Source: Eledone cirrhosa (taxonomy: Eukaryota). Taken from it: a DNA stretch of 64,000 nucleotides. The translations under genes were made by a program, and so were the position numbers. Location: positions 175,212,001 through 175,276,000 of the forward strand of contig OZ024743.1 of assembly GCA_964016885.1 (NCBI GenBank), in the 5' to 3' direction. The notes beneath the pieces were generated by a model that had not been told where the DNA came from, made no database searches, and saw only the letters and a list, made by a program, of their open reading frames with translations. Of the stretch, positions 6,603-59,791 are shown piece after piece; the stretch's first letter is position 1; each line of letters begins with the position of its first letter.

Positions 6603-6625
<23 letters not shown>

Positions 6626-6633
<8 letters not shown>

Positions 6634-7565
6634 TTTACATATATATATACATACACATACATATACGTGTTTTGCAACTGGTCACTTTGTGGCTCAATGA
6701 AAAATTAATAAATTAAACAATCAGAGCTATATATCATAAAACATGTCTATAGAATCACAAGATAAAATATATACTATTTCCTCTCCCAATTAGCATAATT
6801 AACTATATAAAAAATCGAATAGACCAGGCAGGCTATACAAATGAGGCTTCTATGAAGGAATCTCTGACAAATAACCAAAACTAGCGCTTCGCGTCGGCCG
6901 TAGCGGAATATTTATCGAATATTTCGACAGCGTAATCGCCTAGATATAGTCAACTAAACAGAATTAGGTTTAAAATAAACTAGGATAAAATAGAATACAT
7001 TTAAATACCTCTACCATGGTTTCGTCCGTGTTTTGAGTTTTCCAATAATTATGTAATAATTATATAAACTCGAGCGCCGGATTCTTCAGGAAGCTCGCTC
7101 ATATCTAGACATTAAATTTTCCAAAGCGATCGCGCCAAGAATTCATTTCAAAATGGCTAAAAATCGTGACGTAGTCGCGGTCAAGTTGGAAGGGGTGTAG
7201 TAGTTGCTTACGACTGGTGGCATTTTTGATTGAAAGCACAGCACAATACAGCCAAATTTATATCTCAACCTAGTGGGAGATTATTACATATAAAAGTTTA
7301 CATATATATATACATACACATACATATACGTGTTTTGCAACTGGTCACTTTGTGGCTCAATGAAAAATTAATAAATTAAACAATCAGATATTCCGCTACG
7401 GCCGACGCGAAGCGCTAGTTTTGGTTATTTGTCGGAGATTCCTTCATAGAAGCCTCATTCGTATAGCCTGGTCTATTCGATTTTTTATATAGTTAATTAT
7501 GCTAATTGGGAGAGGAAATAGTATATATTTTATCTTGTGATTCTATAGACATGTTTTATGATATA
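6626..7565 (-). mobile_element. Non-autonomous PLE/retrozyme-like element (~660-bp unit, partial tandem plus inverted tail)
   Basis: Direct repeat 6626-6726 / 7288-7388; 7389-7565 is the reverse complement of ~6729-6911; hammerhead at 7007-7094; (TA)n flanks; no ORF. Confidence 0.75.
7007..7094 (-). ncRNA. Type I hammerhead ribozyme motif
   Basis: Minus strand: GCUUC-CUGAAGA-a.UCCG...CGGA.c-GAAA-C-CAUG-G-UA^GAGGU; palindromic ACCAUGGU helix III. Confidence 0.7.
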
Positions 7566-7819
7566 TATATATATACATACACACACACACACACACATAT
7601 TTATGTGTATATATATATATATATATTGGTAAACGGAATAGAAAATGCTGACAAATTGTTCACAGTTGAAAAATGGTTTAATTAGGAATAAAAGAGTATT
7701 AGTGATTGTATGGGTTAGTATTCAGTTGTGGTTTTAAGTTTTTAAGTTTTTACCGGTTGCGCATTTCTAAATGCTTTTCAAAAATAATTTTGAGATAGAG
7801 TGTCCGTGCTGTTTGCTCT

Positions 7820-9976: not shown

Positions 9977-10026
<50 letters not shown>

Positions 10027-10028
<2 letters not shown>

Positions 10029-10230
10029 CGAAGAAAATGTGGTAAGGAACCAGATGGATCATAACGCACCAAAGTACTCAATACTTAGGGTAGTAGAGTG
10101 GGTAATAGGAACGAGTAGGACCCCGACGGCTGAGCTCAAGCTGTTTCGACGGCTAATTCTGGACTCGAATTCTGTCCCCAGAATTACCCGTCGAAACGGC
10201 TTGAGCTCAGCCGTCGGGGTCCTACTCGTT

Positions 10231-10234
<4 letters not shown>
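10027..10234. mobile_element. Asymmetric palindromic element, family F, copy 1
   Basis: Long arm ...gtggtaaggaacc...gagtgggtaatagg...gaccccgacggctgagctcaagc.gtttcgacgg and short inverted arm ending ttcc(ta)n. Confidence 0.85.
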
Positions 10235-10276
<42 letters not shown>

Positions 10277-10280
<4 letters not shown>

Positions 10281-10464
10281 AAAATGTATGACCCCGACGG
10301 GGCAGAGCTCAAGCTAGAATTTAGTCCAGAGATAGCTGTCGAAACGGCTTGAGCTCTGCCGTCGGGGTCATACATTTTCCTATTACCCACTCTACTACCC
10401 TAACTATTGAGTACTCTGGTGCGTTATGGTCCATCTTGTTCCTTACCACAACTCCTTCGTTATA
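10277..10464. mobile_element. Asymmetric palindromic element, family F, copy 2 (opposite orientation)
   Basis: cgaaacggcttgagctctgccgtcggggtc...cctattacccactctactaccc...ccttaccac...cttcgtta; (TA)n flanks. Confidence 0.85.
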
Positions 10465-10501
<37 letters not shown>

Positions 10502-10528
10502 GAGTGTGTGTGTGTGTGTGTGTGCATA

Positions 10529-10630
10529 TACGGGGTCTCCTAAAATGTATACACACTTTGATTACCTGTACAGGCAATATTTATGAGAATGCGGTTGAAG
10601 TGTGTATACATTTTTGGGGAACATCTTGTA
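10529..10630. mobile_element. Tc1/mariner-type MITE (~100 bp)
   Basis: TIRs ta-cggggtctcctaaaatgtatacacactt / aagtgtgtatacatttttggggaacatcttg-ta; TA at both ends. Confidence 0.55.
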
Positions 10631-10766
10631 TATATAGATATGCAAACACACATAAATACATGTGTGCGTTATTTAAGTGTGTAACTATAGTTACAGGCGG
10701 TGCGCCGCGAAGCAATCGATGTTGTCTCGAGTTCCATCTCGTGTTGTGTTGTATTCCACGGTTAAG

Positions 10767-11001
10767 ACGGCTGTAGTGTGTAGAGTGTAAATAAAGTAAG
10801 TTAGGATTGTTTTTGCACATATAAACTCACATAATTGAAGAGATGTCGAGGAAAGATTTGACCCCGGTCATTATGATTGCACCCTGAGCTGATCGATATT
10901 AAAGCGACCCTAATATGCCAATAAATGATTATATATATGCTGTAACACTGACTTCGATCCTACTTTATACACACGCACACACACACACATATATATATAT
11001 A

Positions 11002-11085
<84 letters not shown>

Positions 11086-11936
11086 TGTATGTATGTATGT
11101 ATGTATGTTTATATCAGGTCACCAGATGGTGCTACTGGTAACACGTATCCCAGTACAACCTGTCCCATGGTCGGGTCGTTGGCGACTAAACTGGCAACCC
11201 CACCAATGTTTCTTGGTGAGGAGGGTGACTTTGGACATCCTGCAGGACTAAAAACAAAACCTGTCAAAGGGCAAAGGAGCTCTTTAGAGTCAATGGCCAT
11301 CCAAAATCACCGGGAGAGATGACCCCTTAGCCTTTGTCAAGGCAGAATTCTAGGAGAAGGAAAACTCTGATATAACACCTGCAACCCTGATGGTATCCAA
11401 TGATGTTGACTTGTTCTTCTTTTTGGTAAATATCATCTTGGTTAAGGGAGTGGGACTGGCTTTGTGCAGTGCCTTTGCTCACTATAAAAGCTTCACGGCA
11501 CAGGCATTGCTTTATATCTGGAGATCTCTCTGCACTTGTCATCACATGGTACCATGGGCCCAGCACTATGTGTCAATAATTGTCACAAGTGTAGTGTTTG
11601 TACCAGAGTTTTCAAGTCGCTGGCTGGAATAAAAAGTCACACTCGTTTAGAGCATCGGTAGGAGATCTCCTACATGGATATAAAATAGTGGCCTTACTCG
11701 AAAACGAGTTGGCCGCCACCATGTATGTATATAAAGTAGGTAGGATCGAAGTCAGTGTTACAGCATATATATAATCATTTATTGGCATATTACAGTCGCT
11801 TCAATATTGATCACCTCAGGGTGCAATCATAATGACCGGGGTCAAATCTTTCCTCGACATCTCTTCAGATATGTGAGTTTATATGTGCAAAAACAATCCT
11901 AACTTACTTTATTTACACTCTACACACTACAGCCGT
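10767..11936. repeat. ~200-bp inverted repeat pair (10767-10970 / 11728-11936) with a degenerate hammerhead, enclosing an RTE derivative
   Basis: The arms are reverse complements. Motif catat-ctgaaga-gatgtcga...tcgatatt-(g)aag...gta-atatg followed by aataaa. Confidence 0.75.
11110..11725 (+). mobile_element. Short internally deleted RTE-like LINE derivative
   Basis: 5'-UTR-like gagaaggaaaactctga motif. 3' end encodes the C2H2 finger CSVCTRVFKSLAGIKSHTRLEH* (11581-11661). (TATG)n on both sides. Confidence 0.5.
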
Positions 11937-11938
11937 TT

Positions 11939-12096
11939 GAAAATGTTTAATCCCGTCGACTGAGCTCAAGCCGTTTCGAAACGGCTTGAGCTCTGCCGTC
12001 GGGGTTAAACATTTTCCTATTATTCACTCTATCACTCTAAGTATTGAGTACTTTGGTGTGTTATGGTCCATCTCGTTCCTTACCACACCTCCTTTG

Positions 12097-12100
<4 letters not shown>
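11939..12100. mobile_element. Asymmetric palindromic element, family F, copy 3 (central loop lost)
   Basis: ...gagctcaagccgtttc|gaaacggcttgagctctgccgtcgggg...cctattattcactcta...ccttaccac...gtta. Confidence 0.8.
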
Positions 12101-12139
<39 letters not shown>

Positions 12140-12145
<6 letters not shown>

Positions 12146-13906: not shown

Positions 13907-14408
<502 letters not shown>

Positions 14409-14462
14409 TAAACAAATAATGAATAAAACAATGAAACAGTTCCTTATATTAAACAAAAAAAG

Positions 14463-14616
14463 TTCATTATTTAACGATCGTTTCTAGGATATATATGTGT
14501 TAGAATTGGCATGCATATTCAACAGATCTATGTACAAAATTATACAAAATTATACAAACTATCAAGATTAAATATACATACCAACACATATATACGCCGT
14601 CTTCAGAAATAATGAA
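14463..14616 (-). ncRNA. Type I hammerhead in the 3' pLTR, long helix II
   Basis: UUCAUUAUUU-CUGAAGA-...UAUAUAUGUGUUGG..(large loop)..CUAACACAUAUAUA...-GAAA-C-GAUC-G-UU^AAAUAAUGAA; perfect 10-bp helix I. Confidence 0.75.
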
Positions 14617-15255
14617 ATATATTTATTGATAATAACAACAATTCAAAATTTCAGGTCCGTTTGGGAACAAAATTGACCAATGAAAATACAAAAGGTTTAA
14701 TGCAGTTCGGTGTGTGTATATACATGTAACTACCCTTACACATATTTTACAAAAATGTATGCTCAACTTGTATACGCATACCAAAAGGATGGATGCAAAT
14801 ACAAAATTTCAAGGTTAATGTCTCTGTAAGTTTATAATGCACAGATAAGATGCGTATAAACACATAAATATGAAATAAGTGTATACACATATTCTCATAC
14901 TCACACATATCCGTACAATCACACACACACGCGCGTATATGCATAAACATACACATAACTACGAACATACAAATACACACACACCCCCACTCACATATAT
15001 ATATGTGGATATAAAATCCTAAGCACATGGATATTAATTCACTCACATAAACACTGGCACACACATTTAGATCAAGATACAGAAATTAGGTGGGAGGGGG
15101 GGAGAGGTCAGTATTCAACTGTTTGGGCAGACTGCTTATTATAGATGTATCTATAAACTAAGAAAATTAAAAAAATTAAAAATAATAAATAATAAATAAA
15201 CATTAAAAAGGAAAGAAAAGAAAAAGAAAAAAGAAAAAAGAAATATATCAAGAAA

Positions 15256-15300
<45 letters not shown>

Positions 15301-15446
15301 CATACATATATATACATATATATATATATACATATACAAACACATACATACATATACACACATCAACACTTAGAACATACATACACACACATATATAAAC
15401 ATATACATATACACACATACATACATATACACACATACATATAAAT

Positions 15447-15491
<45 letters not shown>

Positions 15492-15769
15492 TATACACAT
15501 ATAATCACAATACTATATAGACACACATATATATACACACATACACGCACATATACATACACTTACATACTTATATACATACAGATATACACATACATAC
15601 CTATATATACACACAAATACATACAGACATACATACATACATACAGACAAATACTTACGCATCCATATATCGGTATATACATACAAACACCACTACACTC
15701 TCACACAACTCAGACATACAAAGAAAAAGGTATATACCTATACACATATACATATACAAATAGATAAAC

Positions 15770-15842
<73 letters not shown>

Positions 15843-16038
15843 CACATATACACACATATACATACATACACATACATACATGTACACACACATAGATATA
15901 TATACATACACACATACACACATACATATATAGTCATACACACACATACACCTACACGAACATACACATACACATATATAAAGATATATATACACACACA
16001 CACACACATACACACACACACATATATATAAAAAATAA

Positions 16039-16089
<51 letters not shown>

Positions 16090-16668
16090 CATATACATAC
16101 ACACATACATAGACATATATGTACATACATACACATACATACATACATACACACACATACATACATATATATATACACACATAGACATATACATACATAC
16201 ACAGACAACATACATACACACACATATATACTCATACATAGAATTAGATATATATTCATACATACATACGCACTTACATATACTCATATATACAAATACA
16301 TACGCATCCATATATGCGTATATACATAGAAACACCACTACACCCTCACACAACTCAGACATACAAAGAAAAAGGCATATACATATACATATACATATAT
16401 ACACGCATTAATAGAGATATATATACACATATATATATATATATATATATATAGACATACATTTATATATATAGACCCACACACACATACAACCATAAAC
16501 ACACATACAAACACCCACATATACATATATATACACATATATATATATACACACACATAAAAAACAGACATGCACATATATATTTTTTTACACATATATA
16601 TACACATATATATACATATACACACCCTCACATATACACACATACACATAAGTTATATTATAATAATA

Positions 16669-16709
<41 letters not shown>

Positions 16710-16958
16710 CGAATATAGACATATATACACACATAGATATATATATATATATACACATACATATACACACACACATACACACACTCACATATATATGTGT
16801 GTGCACACACACATATATACACATACACACATATACACGTAAACACATATATGTGTATACATGCACACACACACATATATCCACATAGATACGAAGATAG
16901 ACATATAAATAGAGAGACATACATATATATACACACACATATATACATACATACATAG

Positions 16959-17024
<66 letters not shown>

Positions 17025-17801
17025 ACATACACATATATATACACATGCATATATACACATATATATATACATACACACATATATATACACACACAATCTT
17101 ACATTCTTATTTGCATGCGCATATATGTATTTTTATATTCAGATATAAATACCCAAACATATATACACCTACCTACATATATATTCATACATACACGCTT
17201 ACAAACACAGATGATAATAGTATGGGGGAAAGGGGGGGGGGGGTTGGAGAAGGGGATTATAGTAAATATATGTTTCAAGAAACATAGAATATTATCCGTA
17301 TCTGGATCCAATGTATGTTTTTACATAGTCTCAGTGTTAGGAAATACAATAAATAAGAAATAAGGCAAAATTTATGCATTTCAAAATAAATAAGTATACC
17401 ATTAATTATATGTTAACTAAACTAAAGATAGTTAACATATTGATTTCTAAGGTGTAAATTAGTTAGGTTTATAATATTTGAAGCAGAATTTTGAAGTTAA
17501 ATAGTAGTAGAGTATTAATTATAGTATAACTAAATTAAAGTTAATAACGTTATGGTATCAATATTAGGAAATGAATTTAGTAATAGGGAAAAAACAAATA
17601 AAGTATTACATCGGTAGTAGAATATAAATTATAGGTTAACTAAATTAAAAATTATATATTTATTTCTATAGTATATGTTAATTAGGTATATAATAAATAA
17701 AACAGATATTGTATTTTATCAATAGCAGAATATAATTATATGCAAATAGAAATCAAAATTAATACGCATACATATACATATACATACACATATATATATA
17801 C

Positions 17802-17850
<49 letters not shown>

Positions 17851-18338
17851 TACACATACACATACATACATACATATACATATTTTTTCAAAAATTGCAA
17901 AGAATATATTAACTAGGTATATATCCAAAACACATCCCATTCTATGATTACATGACATTCTGCAATTCGTCTGTATAAGGATACTAATTTTAAGCCAATT
18001 AAATTAAATTTTTAGGTTGACTAAATTTAAAACTAAATTATAAATATATTTCTAAAATGTATATTAATTAGGTCTATAATACTAAAAATTATTTCTCTGT
18101 CATTGGATACACGATATTTTGTTATATTTTATCCGTAAAGGAATTATAATAAAAGGTTTAAATAAATTAAAATTAATCTATAAATTAAATTACTAAGTAT
18201 ATATTAGTAATATTTAAAGGTTTTTCACAATTTATGATTACATAATATTTTATATTCTCATCTGTAATAGAATTTTAATTAAATTAAATTTATAGGTTAA
18301 CTAACATTTAAATTAAATTAATTTCTAAAATAATGTTA

Positions 18339-20780
18339 TTAATTAGGTTTATAATATTTAAATGTTTTTTTTAGTTTATGATTACACGATATAATTAATT
18401 CCTGTCGTTTATTTAATAGGATATCCTTAGATTTCATTATTTCAAATAGTTCTTGGGAACATAATCTACATTCATTTCTATTATTTTGATAAGGGGTGGC
18501 TCTTTTGAGCACACTCCAGGTCAAATCATATTCTATATTCTTATTTTTATAACTATTGATTTTTTCTGCTAGAGATGTTGTATTAGCCAGTGCGGCATTT
18601 TTAAAACTATGCTTGTGGGTATTAAACCTTGTCTTAAAATTGTTAGAGGTAGCTCCTATATATGAGCAAATAGAATCTTTAGTTTTAACATTACATTTAT
18701 AGACTATGTTGTTAACAAGACAATTCCCTTTTAATGGGCAGTTTGCTTTGTTTCTACAGTTACAACCTTTCGTTAATTCTGTATTTGAGGAGATATTATG
18801 GTTAATTTGATGTACTGGTGGTATACTTATGGTTTTCTTACATTTATATGCATTATAGGCATTTATATTTTGTTTTATGTTATTTGTTGTAGAGTATGAG
18901 AATTTAACTGTAGACCTATTTAAGATTTGATGGTATTTGTGGTTTGGCGGGAAGTTTTTCTCTAGGATATAAAAAAATTTTTTAGCAATATTATCCTTAA
19001 TTTGTAAATTAAATGGAGCATTATACCAAGTAACCCGTCTATTACGGTTTCTATGTTGTTTATTATTTTTATTATTTTTATAGGTTGTATCGTGATTTTT
19101 ACTAGGAGGATTAATGTTAATGATCTCACCACAACCATTTTTAGTTATATTTGTAGATTTAGGTGTTTTATCCTTTTTATTAGGAGTTTTATTATTAATA
19201 TTTATTAGAGTTGTATGATGAGTAGTTTTTTGAGAGTTACTATACTTTATATTAGAAGATTTGGTATTTTGGGGTATAGTGTGGGTGGCATTTAGGTGTG
19301 TACTTTTCATTTGGTGTTTGTTGGTAATATTAGGTTGTATGCTTTCAGTATTTTTAGTAGAAGGTATATATTCTAATCTATTTTTGTGGCCACTTCTATC
19401 TAGAGCTTCGTTATAGAAGGTCGCATTTTTATCAAATACATCTTGGTTAGAAGAAAGGTTAGAAATTCTAAGTGATATATTATATGCAAGGTTTTTAAGG
19501 ATAGATTTAGGGTGATTAGATTGTGAGTGTATGTAATGTAAGTTTTGGTTTGGTTTATGGTAAGGTTGGTAGATACCCGTAGCTAAATCTAAAGTTATAT
19601 CTAGGAAATTTACTACTTTACTTGTTTTTTCAAAAGTAATATTAAGATTATAATAGTCTTTAAGGAAAGTTCTAATATGTTTTTTGTTTTTTTCAATTTC
19701 TGAAAGGCTAAGGTTGTTAGAAAGAAGAAGACAGTCATCACGATATAAACCACCTTTGAGGTGGGGAAAGGAGGCATTTATGTTGAAAAGGAGAAAGAGG
19801 CCCACAAGATCAGTAATTTGGGCGGAATCGCTTGAACCCATAGTAATATCAAATAGATTACTATATGTGTTTCTGGTCCAGTATTCATTCTGAAATTCAA
19901 TAAGTGTTAGTCTAGCATGTGTAATAATAATAATGTCATCCAAAGTTAAGTTAGATCTATTTTTAGCAAATATCAATGCTTTGTTCAGGAGTATAGGTGA
20001 TATAGAAGAATAGTAATTATCTATATCAAATTGTAGAAATGAAGCAGAAGATTTACATCTAATATTTTTAAACCAGTTAATTACCTGGGAGGTGTTTTCC
20101 CAGAGTGGTAAAATAACGTGTTTTCTTATTTGTGGGATGACTCTATCCAAAATTTTTTTGCTAATTATTCCAATATCTGATTTGGAGGGACATATAAGTC
20201 TAATAGAAGGATTTGAGTTAAAGTTTGATTTATGATCCTTCAGGTTGAAGTGTGGTCTTTTCAATGCCAAAGGTTCAGTTCTATCTTCAATGTTTAGTTT
20301 TTTTACTATGTTGTGTGTTTTGTTGTTGATGTTGGTGAGTGACGCATTATTAGATTTTTTATAATTTTTTCTGAGTTCTTTATATATGAACTCATTATAA
20401 TGTTCAATATCCATATGATACAAGTTACCAGTTTTGTCCGAGTGGACATGGATTTTTTTAGACTTTTTTAGGTCCAATAGGGTAGAATCAAGGTCCTTTT
20501 GAAAGACGGATTTATACTTTTTAAATTTGAGGTGTTTAATTAAATTAAAAAGGTCTTTCTCGAAGTCTTCAAGTAAAAAGTTGTGTGGTGGATTCTTGTA
20601 AGTATTGAAATCATACATATATTTCCGATCTGCTTGTTTAGATTTTCTATCGAAGTGGTAGGCTCTCCATCTAACCCTTCTGATAAAATTATTAGTTTTT
20701 TGAATCATAAGGAGTAAGAAGTCATCCTTAGAAGGTATTGGTATGTTTTTTAAAGAGGTTCCCAAATATTGTTTTTCCAT
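18339..20780 (-). CDS. PLE polyprotein: reverse transcriptase plus C-terminal GIY-YIG endonuclease (probably Hydra clade), ~813 aa from the first ATG
   Basis: Uninterrupted ORF. SLKNIPIPS...RWRA, QFDIDNYYSSI, MGSSDSA, GLYRDD, FLDITLDL, YIHSQSNHP, CNCRNKANC (CxCx5C), IVYK...YIGATS...RF..H, CRLC..E...LNKRQE...CNH. Confidence 0.93.
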   Translation of the reverse strand: MEKQYLGTSLKNIPIPSKDDFLLLMIQKTNNFIRRVRWRAYHFDRKSKQADRKYMYDFNTYKNPPHNFLLEDFEKDLFNLIKHLKFKKYKSVFQKDLDSTLLDLKKSKKIHVHSDKTGNLYHMDIEHYNEFIYKELRKNYKKSNNASLTNINNKTHNIVKKLNIEDRTEPLALKRPHFNLKDHKSNFNSNPSIRLICPSKSDIGIISKKILDRVIPQIRKHVILPLWENTSQVINWFKNIRCKSSASFLQFDIDNYYSSISPILLNKALIFAKNRSNLTLDDIIIITHARLTLIEFQNEYWTRNTYSNLFDITMGSSDSAQITDLVGLFLLFNINASFPHLKGGLYRDDCLLLSNNLSLSEIEKNKKHIRTFLKDYYNLNITFEKTSKVVNFLDITLDLATGIYQPYHKPNQNLHYIHSQSNHPKSILKNLAYNISLRISNLSSNQDVFDKNATFYNEALDRSGHKNRLEYIPSTKNTESIQPNITNKHQMKSTHLNATHTIPQNTKSSNIKYSNSQKTTHHTTLININNKTPNKKDKTPKSTNITKNGCGEIININPPSKNHDTTYKNNKNNKQHRNRNRRVTWYNAPFNLQIKDNIAKKFFYILEKNFPPNHKYHQILNRSTVKFSYSTTNNIKQNINAYNAYKCKKTISIPPVHQINHNISSNTELTKGCNCRNKANCPLKGNCLVNNIVYKCNVKTKDSICSYIGATSNNFKTRFNTHKHSFKNAALANTTSLAEKINSYKNKNIEYDLTWSVLKRATPYQNNRNECRLCSQELFEIMKSKDILLNKRQELIISCNHKLKKTFKYYKPN

Positions 20781-21291
20781 TGTGATATGGATGATGGACA
20801 ATTGAAAGAGCTCAACTAAATGTATATGGGTTTATAAAATCATACATATATATGTATATACATAAATATAAAATTAATACACACATACAGTACAAAAATA
20901 CGAATATTTCCGTGAAAATAGGAGCAAAATTATGTAGATAAATCTACCAAGAGTTTACGGTAGTGTCCAATCCGTATGAAGAACTCAATGTATTCCGGAT
21001 ATCATGGAAAGAAGAGATGTAATGAAAAATCACTTTCGGTGAAAGATAAACGGTATACAGAGTCAAGATAAAATATTAAACAAATAATGAATAAAACAAT
21101 GAAACAGTTCCTTATATTAAACAAAAAAAGTTCATTATTTAACGATCGTTTCTAGGATATATATGTGTTAGAATTGGCATGCATATTCAACAGATCTATG
21201 TACAAAATTATACAAAATTATACAAACTATCAAGATTAAATATACATACGGACCTGAAATTTTGAATTGTTGTTATTATCAATAAATATAT

Positions 21292-21445
21292 TTCATTATT
21301 TCTGAAGACGGCGTATATATGTGTTGGTATGTATATTTAATCTTGATAGTTTGTATAATTTTGTATAATTTTGTACATAGATCTGTTGAATATGCATGCC
21401 AATTCTAACACATATATATCCTAGAAACGATCGTTAAATAATGAA
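21292..21445 (+). ncRNA. Type I hammerhead in the inverted pLTR copy
   Basis: Reverse complement of 14463-14616. Confidence 0.75.
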
Positions 21446-21667
21446 CTTTTTTTGTTTAATATAAGGAACTGTTTCATTGTTTTATTCATTATTTGTTTAA
21501 TATTTTATCTTGACTCTGTATACCGTTTATCTTTCACCGAAAGTGATTTTTCATTACATCTCTTCTTTCCATGATATCCGGAATACATTGAGTTCTTCAT
21601 ACGGATTGGACACTACCGTAAACTCTTGGTAGATTTATCTACATATATATATATATATATATATATA

Positions 21668-26421: not shown

Positions 26422-27106
26422 ACACTACATCTTACCCAGTTCATTATATAAACACATACTTTCTACCAATATATACATTTTCCCCCTCATGTTTATTTAT
26501 TTATTTCATTTGATTTTTACTTACCCCCCCTTTTTTTCTACCATACTTCTAACACATACACACCCACCACCTTCATTCTGTCCTCTACGTTTACTCAGAT
26601 CACTTTATAACCACATACCTTTATCCAGACCTATATACAAACATTTAATTTCCACCATAATTTATACACCACTTTTCTCCCTCACCCTATGTCCTTACAT
26701 ATCCACCATGTTTTAAGTGTACTCACATATGGTTGTGTGGGCGCATGTGTGTGCGGACATATGTGTACATACATATATATATGCATATATATATGTATAT
26801 ATATGTATATGTGTATATATGTGTATTGTGTGTGTGTTTTGTATGTATATCTATGCATAACTGTGTCTGTATGTATATATATTTATATATATTTGGGTGT
26901 GTAGATATATTTTCTGTGTGTGTTTGTGTGCGTCTGTGTGTATCTACGTGTGTTATGTCCCCACACTTATATCGTGTATTTGTATTTGCGTGTGAACGCA
27001 TATACATGTGTATATACGTATATACAAATAAAATACAGAGTTACTAAATCATATTGATACCCTGCAATTATCAAGCTCAAAGTATAAATACTGAGCATTA
27101 TATAAT

Positions 27107-27194
27107 AATTGTTTCTATTTTTAGGCACAACGCCAGAAAATTACCCAGTACATTACTGGTACTTTATTTTATCGACCCCGTAAGGATGAAAGGC
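27107..27194 (-). mobile_element. 5'-truncated SINE with target-site duplication
   Basis: Matches the 3' half of the SINE at 775; gcattatataat is duplicated at 27095 and 27193. Confidence 0.75.
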
Positions 27195-27316
27195 ATTATA
27201 TAATTATATAATATATATATAATTATATAATTATATATATATTATAATTATATAATATATATATATAATTATATAATTATATATGATTATAATTATATAA
27301 TATATATATATAATTA

Positions 27317-27350
<34 letters not shown>

Positions 27351-27524
27351 ATTATATAATAATATATGTAGAAATAAACACAGAGAATTCTGTGTCTAAA
27401 ATTACGAGGGTAGAAAATACCACAATTGTTTTATATATTTAATCTGAATCATTTCGTAAGATATAAACATTTTTTCATAAGATATAAACAATTTTTCATA
27501 TACAGACCGTATCAATAACTATTT

Positions 27525-27615
27525 CATCTCTCGGACAGATTAGAGATATAATCTGTTTCGCCCTGAAAATTGTGTTTGTAACAGATAATCCGTATGCTTT
27601 CGTCAGCGAGAGATG
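27525..27615 (-). ncRNA. Type I hammerhead motif (strong helices I and III, degenerate helix II)
   Basis: CAUCUCUCG-CUGACGA-...-GAAA-CAGAUUA-uaucuc-UAAUCUG-UC^CGAGAGAUG. Confidence 0.75.
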
Positions 27616-29717
27616 GGATCAAATGAAACAAAACACATGTAACTACAATTCACAGAGGTGAATATCGCACCTCGTGTATTGGACGTTATTCGTGGTGTGA
27701 GTGGATATGCTAGAAATAATATGCCTTATTACACTCAACTTATAAACTCACCTAGTTAGGGATCCGAAATACAAATAAAATACAGAGTTACTAACTCATA
27801 TTGATACCCTGCAATTAAGCTCAAAGTATAAATACTGAGCATTATATAATAATATATGTAGAAATAAACACAGAGAATTCTGTGTCTAAAATTACGAGGG
27901 TAGAAAATACCACAATTGTTTTATATATTTAATCTGAATCGTACGTAAGATATAACATTTTTTGCATAAGATATAAACATTTTTTCATATACAGACCGTA
28001 TAAATAACTATTTCAACTCTCTGAAATAGTTATTGATACGGTCTGTATATGTAAAAAAATTTATATCTTATATAATTCAGATTATATATTTTATATGATT
28101 CAGATTAAATATATAAAACAATTGTGGTATTTTCTACCCTTGTAATTTTAGACACATAATTGTCTGTGTTTATTTCTACATATATTGTTATACACGTATA
28201 TATATATATATATATATATGAAAGGTATAGATTATGTTGTAGCGAGAAGCTAAAAGTATACTATAACATATATGCGACTATAGCGTCAAAATGGGAAAAA
28301 TAGTTAACGTAAGATGTGGGAAAATAATTCAAACTCATCTCAAAAAGAATCAGGATATAAATTCATCCACAGAATTTAGTGAAATCCAGGGAAAAATCAA
28401 TAGAGCCTTAACTCATGATAAAATAAAGTCTAAAATACTCATCCTTCAATTTGGAAAAACTTCAAATGCTCTGTATAGTCTTAAAGGCCATTTCATGAAC
28501 ACTTTCATTGGAGATGGTCACGGTTGGATTTCAATCGTCAGCAGAGCTCAATTTGATAACCAGGACTCTCACAGATATATATGCCAAAAAGGGAATTTTA
28601 AAACTGGCTGGTTCACCATCATGCGTGATTATGAAAAACGCACATGAGGAAAGACAGGGCTAGTGACGTCAGAATGATACGAATGTTTGTTTACAAGAAA
28701 CAACAGTCAAAAACATTCCGAAAAAAAACTCTACAAAAGGAGTTCAGCGAAAAGCAATATTATCGCAGTTTTTTATTAAAAAAACCGGGATTAGTCACAA
28801 AGAATTTAAGCACTCTAGTTCAAAAATCCGAGTATAAATATATAAATGAAAAGTATAGAAATTGTTGTAGCGAGAAGCTAACAGTATTCCATAACATATA
28901 TGCGACTATAGCGTCAAAATGGGGAAAATAGTTAACGTAAGATGTGGGAAACATAATTCAAACTCATCTCAAAGGGAATCAGGATATAAATTCATCCACT
29001 GAATTTAGTGAAATCCAGGGAAAAATCAATAGAGCCTTAACTCATGATAAAATAAAGTCTAAAATACTTATCCTTCAATTTGGAAAAACTTCAAATGCTC
29101 TGTATAGTCATAAAGACTATTCATGAAAACTTTCACTATAGATTGTCACGGTTGGATTTCAATCGTCAGCAGAGCTCAACTTGATAATCAGGACTCTCAC
29201 AGATATATATGCCAAAAAGGGAATTTTAAAACTGGCTGGTTCACCATCATGCGTGATTATGAAAAACGCACATGAGGAAAGACAGGGCTAGTGACGTCAG
29301 AATGAGACGAATGTTTGTTTACAAGAAACAACAGTCAAAAACATTCCGAAAAAAACTTAACAAAAGGAATTCCGCAAAAAGCAATATTATCGCAGTTTTT
29401 TATTAAAAAAACCGGGATTAGTCACAAAGAATTTAAGCACTCTAGGACAAAAATCCGAGTATAAATATATAAATGAAAAGTATAGAAATTGTTGTAGCGA
29501 GAAGCTAACAGTATTCCATAACATATATGCGACTATAGCGTCAAAATGGGGAAAATAGTTAACGTAAGATGTGGGAAAAATAATTCAAACTCATCTCAAA
29601 GGGAATCAGGATATAAATTCATGAACAGAATTTAGTGAAATCCATGGAAAAATCAATAGAGACTTTACTCATGATAAAATAAAGTCTAAAATACTTATCC
29701 TACAATTTGGAAAAACT

Positions 29718-58744: not shown

Positions 58745-58925
58745 TTGTTTCTACTTTAGGCACAAGGCCAGCAATTACCCAGTGCATTACTGGTACTTTA
58801 TTTTATCGACCCCGTAAGGATGAAAGGCAAAGTCAACCTCGGCGGGATTTGAACTCAGAATGGAAAGGGCCGTAACTCTATGCGTCAAAGCATGACGTCC
58901 GACCTTCTACCGATACTGCCAATCC
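58745..58925 (-). mobile_element. SINE, same family as 775-1015
   Basis: gtactttattttatcgaccccgtaaggatgaaaggcaaagtcaacctcggcgggatttgaactcag. Confidence 0.8.
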
Positions 58926-58926
58926 A

Positions 58927-59122
58927 ATAATGAAGGAAGTGTGGTAAGGAACCAGGTGGACCATAATGCACCAGAGTACTCGATACTTTGGGTAGTAGAG
59001 TGGGTAATAGGAAAAAGTTGTTCAGGACCCCGACGGCAGAGCTCAAGCCGTTTCGACGGCTATTTCTGGACTGAAATAGCCGTCGAAACGGCTTGAGCTC
59101 TGCCGTCGGTTCTGAACTTTTT

Positions 59123-59126
<4 letters not shown>
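58927..59126. mobile_element. Asymmetric palindromic element, family F, copy 5
   Basis: gtggtaaggaaccagg...gaccccgacggcagagctcaagccgtttcgacggctattt...aaatagccgtcgaaacggc...ttcc(ta)n. Confidence 0.85.

Positions 59127-59206
<80 letters not shown>

Positions 59207-59506: not shown

Positions 59507-59791
<285 letters not shown>

Follow-up and report, generated by a model that had tools for sequence, protein, structure and literature searches.

Arm ends of Penelope-like elements accumulate at a predicted hammerhead cleavage site in the genome of Eledone cirrhosa

Introduction

EN+ Penelope-like elements (PLEs) are found at (TA)n targets as partial tandem copies beside an inverted and truncated arm; only one of their ends carries a tail, and their 3' ends are fixed at two positions (PMC8557442, PMC3846280, PMC11167929). 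PAc nicks and extends both target strands, and two RT start sites define its tail; RNA-seq of PAc gave no reads that stopped at the cut, and its cleavage was not required in vitro (PMC11167929). PLE hammerheads are of type I with extra bases between A9 and the G10.1-C11.1 pair, and their description calls in vivo evidence for a role absent (PMC4209133). Palindromic PLE junctions have been read as self-priming, an account in which, as far as the available sections go, the ribozyme is not invoked (PMC3846280).

Metazoan non-LTR retrozymes are non-coding units of a few hundred nucleotides with a type I hammerhead, occur as more-than-unit insertions and have been proposed to originate from PLEs (PMC7229834; bioRxiv 10.64898/2026.07.22.740005). 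The second of these links retrozymes to PLEs, and the passages available from it contain neither junctions nor cleavage sites. R2 is the precedent for a 5' junction set by a ribozyme, the RNA 5' end made by the ribozyme being preserved in the DNA copy as its 5' junction (PMC3774820, PMC11331408). No report of PLE arm ends mapping to a hammerhead cut was found in the open-access literature.

The insertion described here lies in a 64-kb stretch of DNA, referred to below as the window. As a non-autonomous PLE or retrozyme the element is ordinary and of a known kind, and the anatomy of its family (family 1) matches the published PLE hallmarks (PMC8557442, PMC3846280). Its hammerhead shares the type I form and the extra bases with those of PLEs. 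It differs from EN+ PLEs in having no open reading frame, a unit of 466-490 nt, a tail of ~75 nt against their 30-40, and a hammerhead with a long stem III and a large loop II rather than a minimal one. With the retrozymes it shares the small non-coding unit, the hammerhead type and the insertions longer than a unit; however, family 1 consists of dispersed 1-1.5-mers with inversions, not long tandem arrays. A circular template is one option, and the longest arms are also compatible with a linear partial-tandem transcript; at the sequence level, the junction of a circle is identical to the tandem junction. The likeness to R2 would lie in the recording of a ribozyme-made RNA end and in the presence of both join and snap-back junction classes (PMC11331408). 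In R2, however, the cut of an HDV-like ribozyme defines full-length elements, whereas here the predicted cut is that of a hammerhead, no more than a few percent of arms end at it, and most junctions lead into an inverted arm.

Results

The insertion is built on a non-coding PLE unit of ~470-490 nt that carries a type I hammerhead on the minus strand. Positions along the unit are numbered from 0, the first nucleotide of the predicted 3' cleavage product (27533, minus strand), with negative numbers upstream in the RNA. The features, in window coordinates, are as follows.

27011..27022, plus strand: left copy of a probable 12-bp target-site duplication, 11/12 identical to 28189-28200; the TA-rich context weakens the case
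27022..27109, minus strand: 3' end of the element (tail), which starts at priming site S1 and finishes at +256, with 95% identity to 27769-27853; family 3' ends pile here
27110..27363, no strand: secondary insertion at S1, a truncated SINE-like repeat plus (TA)n, with a 13-nt flanking duplication
27364..27853, minus strand: full 490-nt non-coding unit, hammerhead read through (from direct repeats)
27526..27614, minus strand: type I hammerhead motif, stem II mismatched (from sequence, family covariation and fold)
27827..28021, minus strand: second partial unit with its 5' end at +1 from the predicted cut (from direct repeats)
28008..28029, no strand: head-to-head junction with an 8-bp stem and a 6-nt loop; loci L174 and L175 share this geometry
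28022..28192, plus strand: inverted arm from +8 to S1, without the tail and followed by (TA)n (from the inverted repeat)
28189..28200, plus strand: right copy of the probable target-site duplication, matching 27011-27022 at 11/12

The element reaches to 27022, is interrupted at 27110-27363 and is bracketed by the 11/12 direct repeat. A preliminary description of this DNA had proposed a 490-bp unit with a tandem second copy that stops about 1 nt from a ribozyme cut and continues as an inverted copy. All three points are borne out: direct repeats recur every 489-490 nt, the match of the second copy runs to 28021 (equivalent to 27532, or +1), and the inverted arm at 28022-28192 is 171 nt long, 88% complementary to 27845-28015 across a 6-nt loop, and starts at +8. 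The ends joined are +1 and +8, with no microhomology. The longest arm measures 746 nt in the window and up to 712 nt among fetched loci. The long arm of the window passes one hammerhead uncut and stops at the next, as would be expected if the template was a re-opened circle, and equally if it was a linear partial-tandem RNA that had been cut at the first of its ribozymes.

The surroundings are rich in repeats. A 26-kb satellite (28205-54193) begins 12 bp past the element; its 627-bp units are 92-95% alike, periodic shorter units suggest a higher-order structure, and its first two units gave no Rfam match. Further short repeats with tandem-plus-inverted anatomy beside (TA)n lie at 6622-7567, 9985-12140, 14400-21508 and 58927-59196, and are probably further non-autonomous PLE families. 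The SINE-like repeat, ~180 bp with one fixed end, occurs at 27110-27195, 58745-58925, 59613-59790 and 777-930, and once inside a second PLE family (L263). It may share a common endonuclease target or machinery with the element. The SINE-like repeats and the microsatellite load appear to resemble those of octopus genomes.

The hammerhead motif noted in the preliminary description, with its predicted GUC cleavage site, is present as a type I motif: CUGANGA, GAAA and NUH stand in order around three stems. The 5' strand of stem I occupies 27614-27607, followed by the core CUGACGA (27606-27600), stem II (27597-27594 with 27563-27560), GAAA (27559-27556), stem III (27556-27549 with 27542-27535) and GUC (27536-27534), which places the predicted cut between 27534 and 27533 on the minus strand. 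In 99 family hammerheads, for which GAAA belonged to the selection filter, core positions C3-A9 are kept in 94-98 apart from N7, and U16.1 and C17 in 94. N7 is free (C 49, G 43, U 6), and pair 3 of stem I varies as U-A 63, U-G 18 and C-G 15, a pattern that suggests a hammerhead under selection. Covariation also supports the stems, with C-G/U-G at pair 2 of stem I and U-A/U-G in stem III. Stem II of the family has four pairs, G-C, C-G, C-G and U-G (84, 89, 88 and 95 of 99), against which the window copy has an A.G mismatch, so its helix II is degenerate as had been noted. In the predicted fold of the 103-nt hammerhead region (z = -2.7), stems I and III form. The hammerhead fold is the MFE for L013; for L125 and the window copy its energy exceeds the MFE by 2 and 8.5 kcal/mol, respectively. 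The Rfam hammerhead model was absent from the 150 of 179 matches listed and from all 16 matches of another scan; the Rfam scans yielded only hairpin and microsatellite noise.

The 3.0-Gb genome contains 554 family 1 anchor matches at no more than one mismatch. Two subfamilies are present, with unit lengths of 466 and 479 nt. The 3' ends of the pieces are concentrated at S1 and at the tail end, which lies ~75 nt beyond it. Of the 229 passages of S1, 40 carry the SINE-like insertion and 55 run on into the tail; the others end in TA-rich DNA (88) or in other flanking sequence (46); TA-rich DNA is entered by 88 of the 134 arms that end at S1. Family 1 shows the partial tandem with an adjacent inverted 5'-truncated copy, a tail on one end only with two fixed 3' ends (tail/tail pairs 0/59), and an AT-rich or microsatellite target, which place it among the PLEs. 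The fetched loci contain 106 rows of head-to-head junctions, including some duplicates, scattered along the whole unit, and the idea of an inversion special to the window copy was rejected on these grounds. The preliminary description had offered the fold-back at the predicted cut as a footprint of ribozyme activity; 5' inversion is a standard PLE trait found all along the unit, but the ends are not uniformly distributed, and in that respect the claim stands. A second family (family 2) is an unrelated autonomous PLE with RT and GIY-YIG (L240, L241, L244). Its hammerhead, assigned by eye, is minimal, with a 5-bp AU-rich stem I and a stem III of 1-2 bp.

The arms start at S1 or the tail end, insert in TA-rich DNA and join head to head. 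In L1 twin priming, two cDNAs from opposite target strands are joined head to head through microhomology; here, by comparison, there are two fixed internal priming sites and the arms may overlap by at least 170 nt. We scored 59 family 1 junctions with both far ends at priming sites, after setting aside 46 split-arm rows and dropping one duplicate. The arm pairs were disjoint in 15, partly overlapping in 6 and contained in 38, with no tail/tail pair. Disjoint or partly overlapping arms (21/59) cannot be snap-back copies.

The preliminary description had the cDNA snap back at run-off to prime the second strand. In its full form, a single cDNA made from self-cleaved RNA would fold back, make the whole 171-nt arm and be resolved at S1 by the endonuclease. 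This would suit the inverted arm of the window, which is wholly inside the long arm and its near relative. It would also suit the short snap-backs at L174 and L175, which have the +1/+8 hairpin of the window with only 6-8 inverted nucleotides and which second priming at S1 cannot yield, and a family 2 junction with a self-priming stem of 3-4 bp that recurs at 6 loci among 100 rows. The self-priming reading of palindromic PLE junctions (PMC3846280) and the low-frequency snap-back junctions of R2 (PMC11331408) point the same way. However, the window junction offers no base pairing that could serve as a primer, and the 21 junctions above are incompatible with this route. The blunt or filler-joined 0/0 joins of family 2 need two cDNAs, and inverted arms end at S1, the fixed priming site also used by arms that cannot be snap-backs. 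Arm-to-arm similarity (40 pairs, mostly mutual closest) indicates one source per insertion and does not tell snap-back from twin priming. Short snap-backs therefore exist, but as a general route the proposal fails, and we regard fold-back synthesis of the whole window arm as unlikely. The favoured sequence for the window junction is run-off, possibly a short snap-back, and then joining to a second cDNA primed at S1. Such two-site priming agrees with the two-site, two-strand priming of PAc (PMC11167929).

The test for uniform breakpoints suggested in the preliminary description was carried out, and the ends were not uniform; they were enriched at the predicted cut in both families. For family 1, a genome-wide pattern for copies without the conserved GG at -30/-29 gave 86 rows, which were sorted by hand: 19 rows, equal to 16 events, ended at 0..+2, 34 ended at -5..-28, and 31, altered by indels or point changes, read through. 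The other two rows, of which one was ambiguous and one was an internal deletion ending at 0, were dropped, and the window insertion itself was left out of the count. End positions were hand-called, with loci checked for all 16 site events and 24 of the 34 background events. Of 50 ends in -28..+2, 16 fall at 0..+2 (6 at 0, 5 at +1 and 5 at +2) and none at -1..-4. The density is 5.3 ends per nt against 1.2 in the neighbouring positions, a ~4.4-fold difference (binomial p 1.2e-5; 2.5e-4 after scanning all 3-nt windows; 4.8e-4 without three weaker calls). In a set of 139 anchors at +8, picked only by exact match downstream of the site and overlapping the genome-wide set, of which it is not independent, 6 of 136 end at 0..+2 where 1.6 are expected (p 0.006).

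The share of arms concerned is small. Only 16 of the 554 anchors stop at the site, ~3.7% after filter correction (about 3-5%), and more than 95% of arms read through the hammerhead. With a hazard of ~0.004 per nt in family 1, roughly a quarter of the ends at 0..+2 are background. The 16 site events differ in partners and flanks. Symmetric junctions form 5 of 14 at the site, against 0 of 16 at -1..-29 and 9 of ~85 elsewhere (p 0.014 and 0.026), and a 0/0 palindrome, blunt or filler-joined, is present at L033. The first 30 loci, chosen for an intact hammerhead, were excluded from the enrichment, and a targeted fold-back search (6 loci) was not taken as a denominator.

For family 2, 189 of 3091 anchors passed the filter; the first 100 were read, with each repeated junction counted once. 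Of the 60 junction types in these, 31 fell at -2..+2, with 15 at 0..+2, 9 at -1 and 7 at -2, and 29 events fell at -3..-28, 8 of these at -4 (p 2e-10; strict 0..+2, p 5e-4). With the anchor moved 18 nt to +20, the first 100 of 396 rows gave 21 of 50 types at -2..+2 with the mode at 0 (7), 19 at +3..+19 and 10 at -3..-12 (p 8e-6). The edge is blurrier than that of family 1. Among twenty fetched loci are palindromes centred on the predicted cut, with arms from 0 to S1 and from 0 to the tail end, joined bluntly (L269), through filler (L270-L272) or by overlaps of 1-4 nt (L257-L263, L267, L268). An artefact of the anchor edge can be set aside, since the peak keeps its place at 0 whether the anchor is at +8 (family 1) or at +20 (family 2). 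A control stretch next to its anchor reached at most 1.6-fold (10/~61, p 0.08).

Two side observations concern the same family. In 30 unselected loci (L277-L306), ~8 arms end at -63..-75, downstream of an Inr-like motif and ~25-30 nt downstream of a TATA-like one, a pile that is the probable record of a transcription start in genomic copies; a palindromic derivative with a fixed junction near -63..-75 recurs at many loci. Head-to-tail jumps from 0 back to +52 at L264, L265 and L266 have produced 48-nt tandem duplications, possibly by a template jump at run-off.

A pile of ends could also form without cleavage, if RT stopped where stem I meets the structured hammerhead core and the stalled cDNAs were joined. 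In a ribozyme-free tail stretch examined by the same design (first 100 of 219 rows), 16 of ~61 ends cluster within 3 of 30 nt (p 2.5e-4), immediately on the 3' side of a small hairpin, and stem II is directly preceded by a pile of 9 family 1 ends, at -24..-26. A ribozyme is thus not needed for a threefold hot spot, which makes RT stalling a credible rival; both piles stand 1-3 nt before a stem, and the more than 95% of templates passed uncut are in keeping with it. However, the other piles populate the last unpaired base before the stem, whereas at the hammerhead none of the 16 ends is at -1 or -2, and the family 1 edge falls on the scissile bond. The peak moreover recurs in family 2, whose minimal hammerhead is a weak block, and stalling is in our view rather improbable as the cause. 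The predicted cut is set apart from other hot spots by having been predicted beforehand, by this edge and by the enrichment of symmetric junctions. Coincidence or sequence bias, by which a microhomology preference or a few propagated founder junctions would produce the peak, could draw on the spread of junctions over the unit, the background quarter, the 8-nt inverted repeat supplied by stem I (used at L091) and a family 2 junction that recurs at fixed spacing across many loci, which means that junctions can be inherited and that the recurring ones may be so rather than independent; but the site had been named before any ends were counted, partners and flanks differ among the 16 family 1 events, and in family 2 the peak remains at 0 for two anchors even when each junction type is counted once, so that this reading is very improbable.

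Discussion

The accumulation of arm ends at the predicted cut in two families is real, and cleavage by the predicted ribozyme is its probable cause. For the window junction, read from one insertion, the same origin is moderately likely. The preliminary description had seen here a genomic footprint of ribozyme activity in vivo. The enrichment in two families and the symmetric fold-backs (5/14 vs 0/16) support that claim, but for about 3-5% of arms only.

We propose the following course of events. A PLE RT/GIY-YIG protein acting in trans would nick both target strands, and two cDNAs would be primed, the first from the tail end and the second from S1. The majority of cDNAs would read past a hammerhead that had stayed uncut and would end at various positions; in ~3-5% of passages the cDNA would run off at the cut, where its RNA template began. 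The 3' ends of the two cDNAs would then be linked, whether directly, by microhomology of 1-4 nt, or following a snap-back of 6-8 nt, which would give the other cDNA an annealing partner. Two cDNAs that had both run off the same cut end would give a near-perfect palindrome centred on the cut, of which the +1/+8 junction of the window may be an example. In the window, RT likely ran off an RNA already cut by the predicted ribozyme, and we lean slightly towards this two-cDNA model as a whole. The broader proposition, that PLE junctions serve as a fossil assay of hammerhead activity, with a few percent of templates cut and the inverted pLTR made from two cDNAs off one RNA end, seems to us evenly balanced.

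The role of PLE hammerheads has been left without in vivo evidence (PMC4209133), and in PAc, the only PLE system studied in vitro, cleavage is dispensable (PMC11167929). If the present reading is true, PLE hammerheads would cut the retrotransposition template in vivo, in a few percent of cases only, and the peak would hold even for the minimal hammerhead of family 2, a kind that barely cleaves in vitro. If arm ends record RNA ends, genomes with young PLEs would allow cut sites to be mapped and the cleaved fraction to be estimated, and circular and linear templates could be weighed from genomes without experiment. Such data also allow twin priming to be told from snap-back as the origin of the inverted pLTR.

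EN+ PLEs are abundant in this genome (10597 candidates), and RT and GIY-YIG were present in 3 of 4 frames scanned. An autonomous partner sharing the unit was absent from 50 fetched GIY-YIG loci, where the best match was ~65% over 110 nt, in two small side insertions. A small palindromic family in (TA)n (L234:560-800, L227:2440-2800) has the terminal 110 nt in common with the window element, at ~65% identity. A near full-length autonomous PLE at L237:1273-7001 has 753-bp terminal repeats at 99% identity, ends in (AT)37 and retains a 938-aa open frame with RT and GIY-YIG; its repeat contains, by eye only, a hammerhead-like motif with a variant core.
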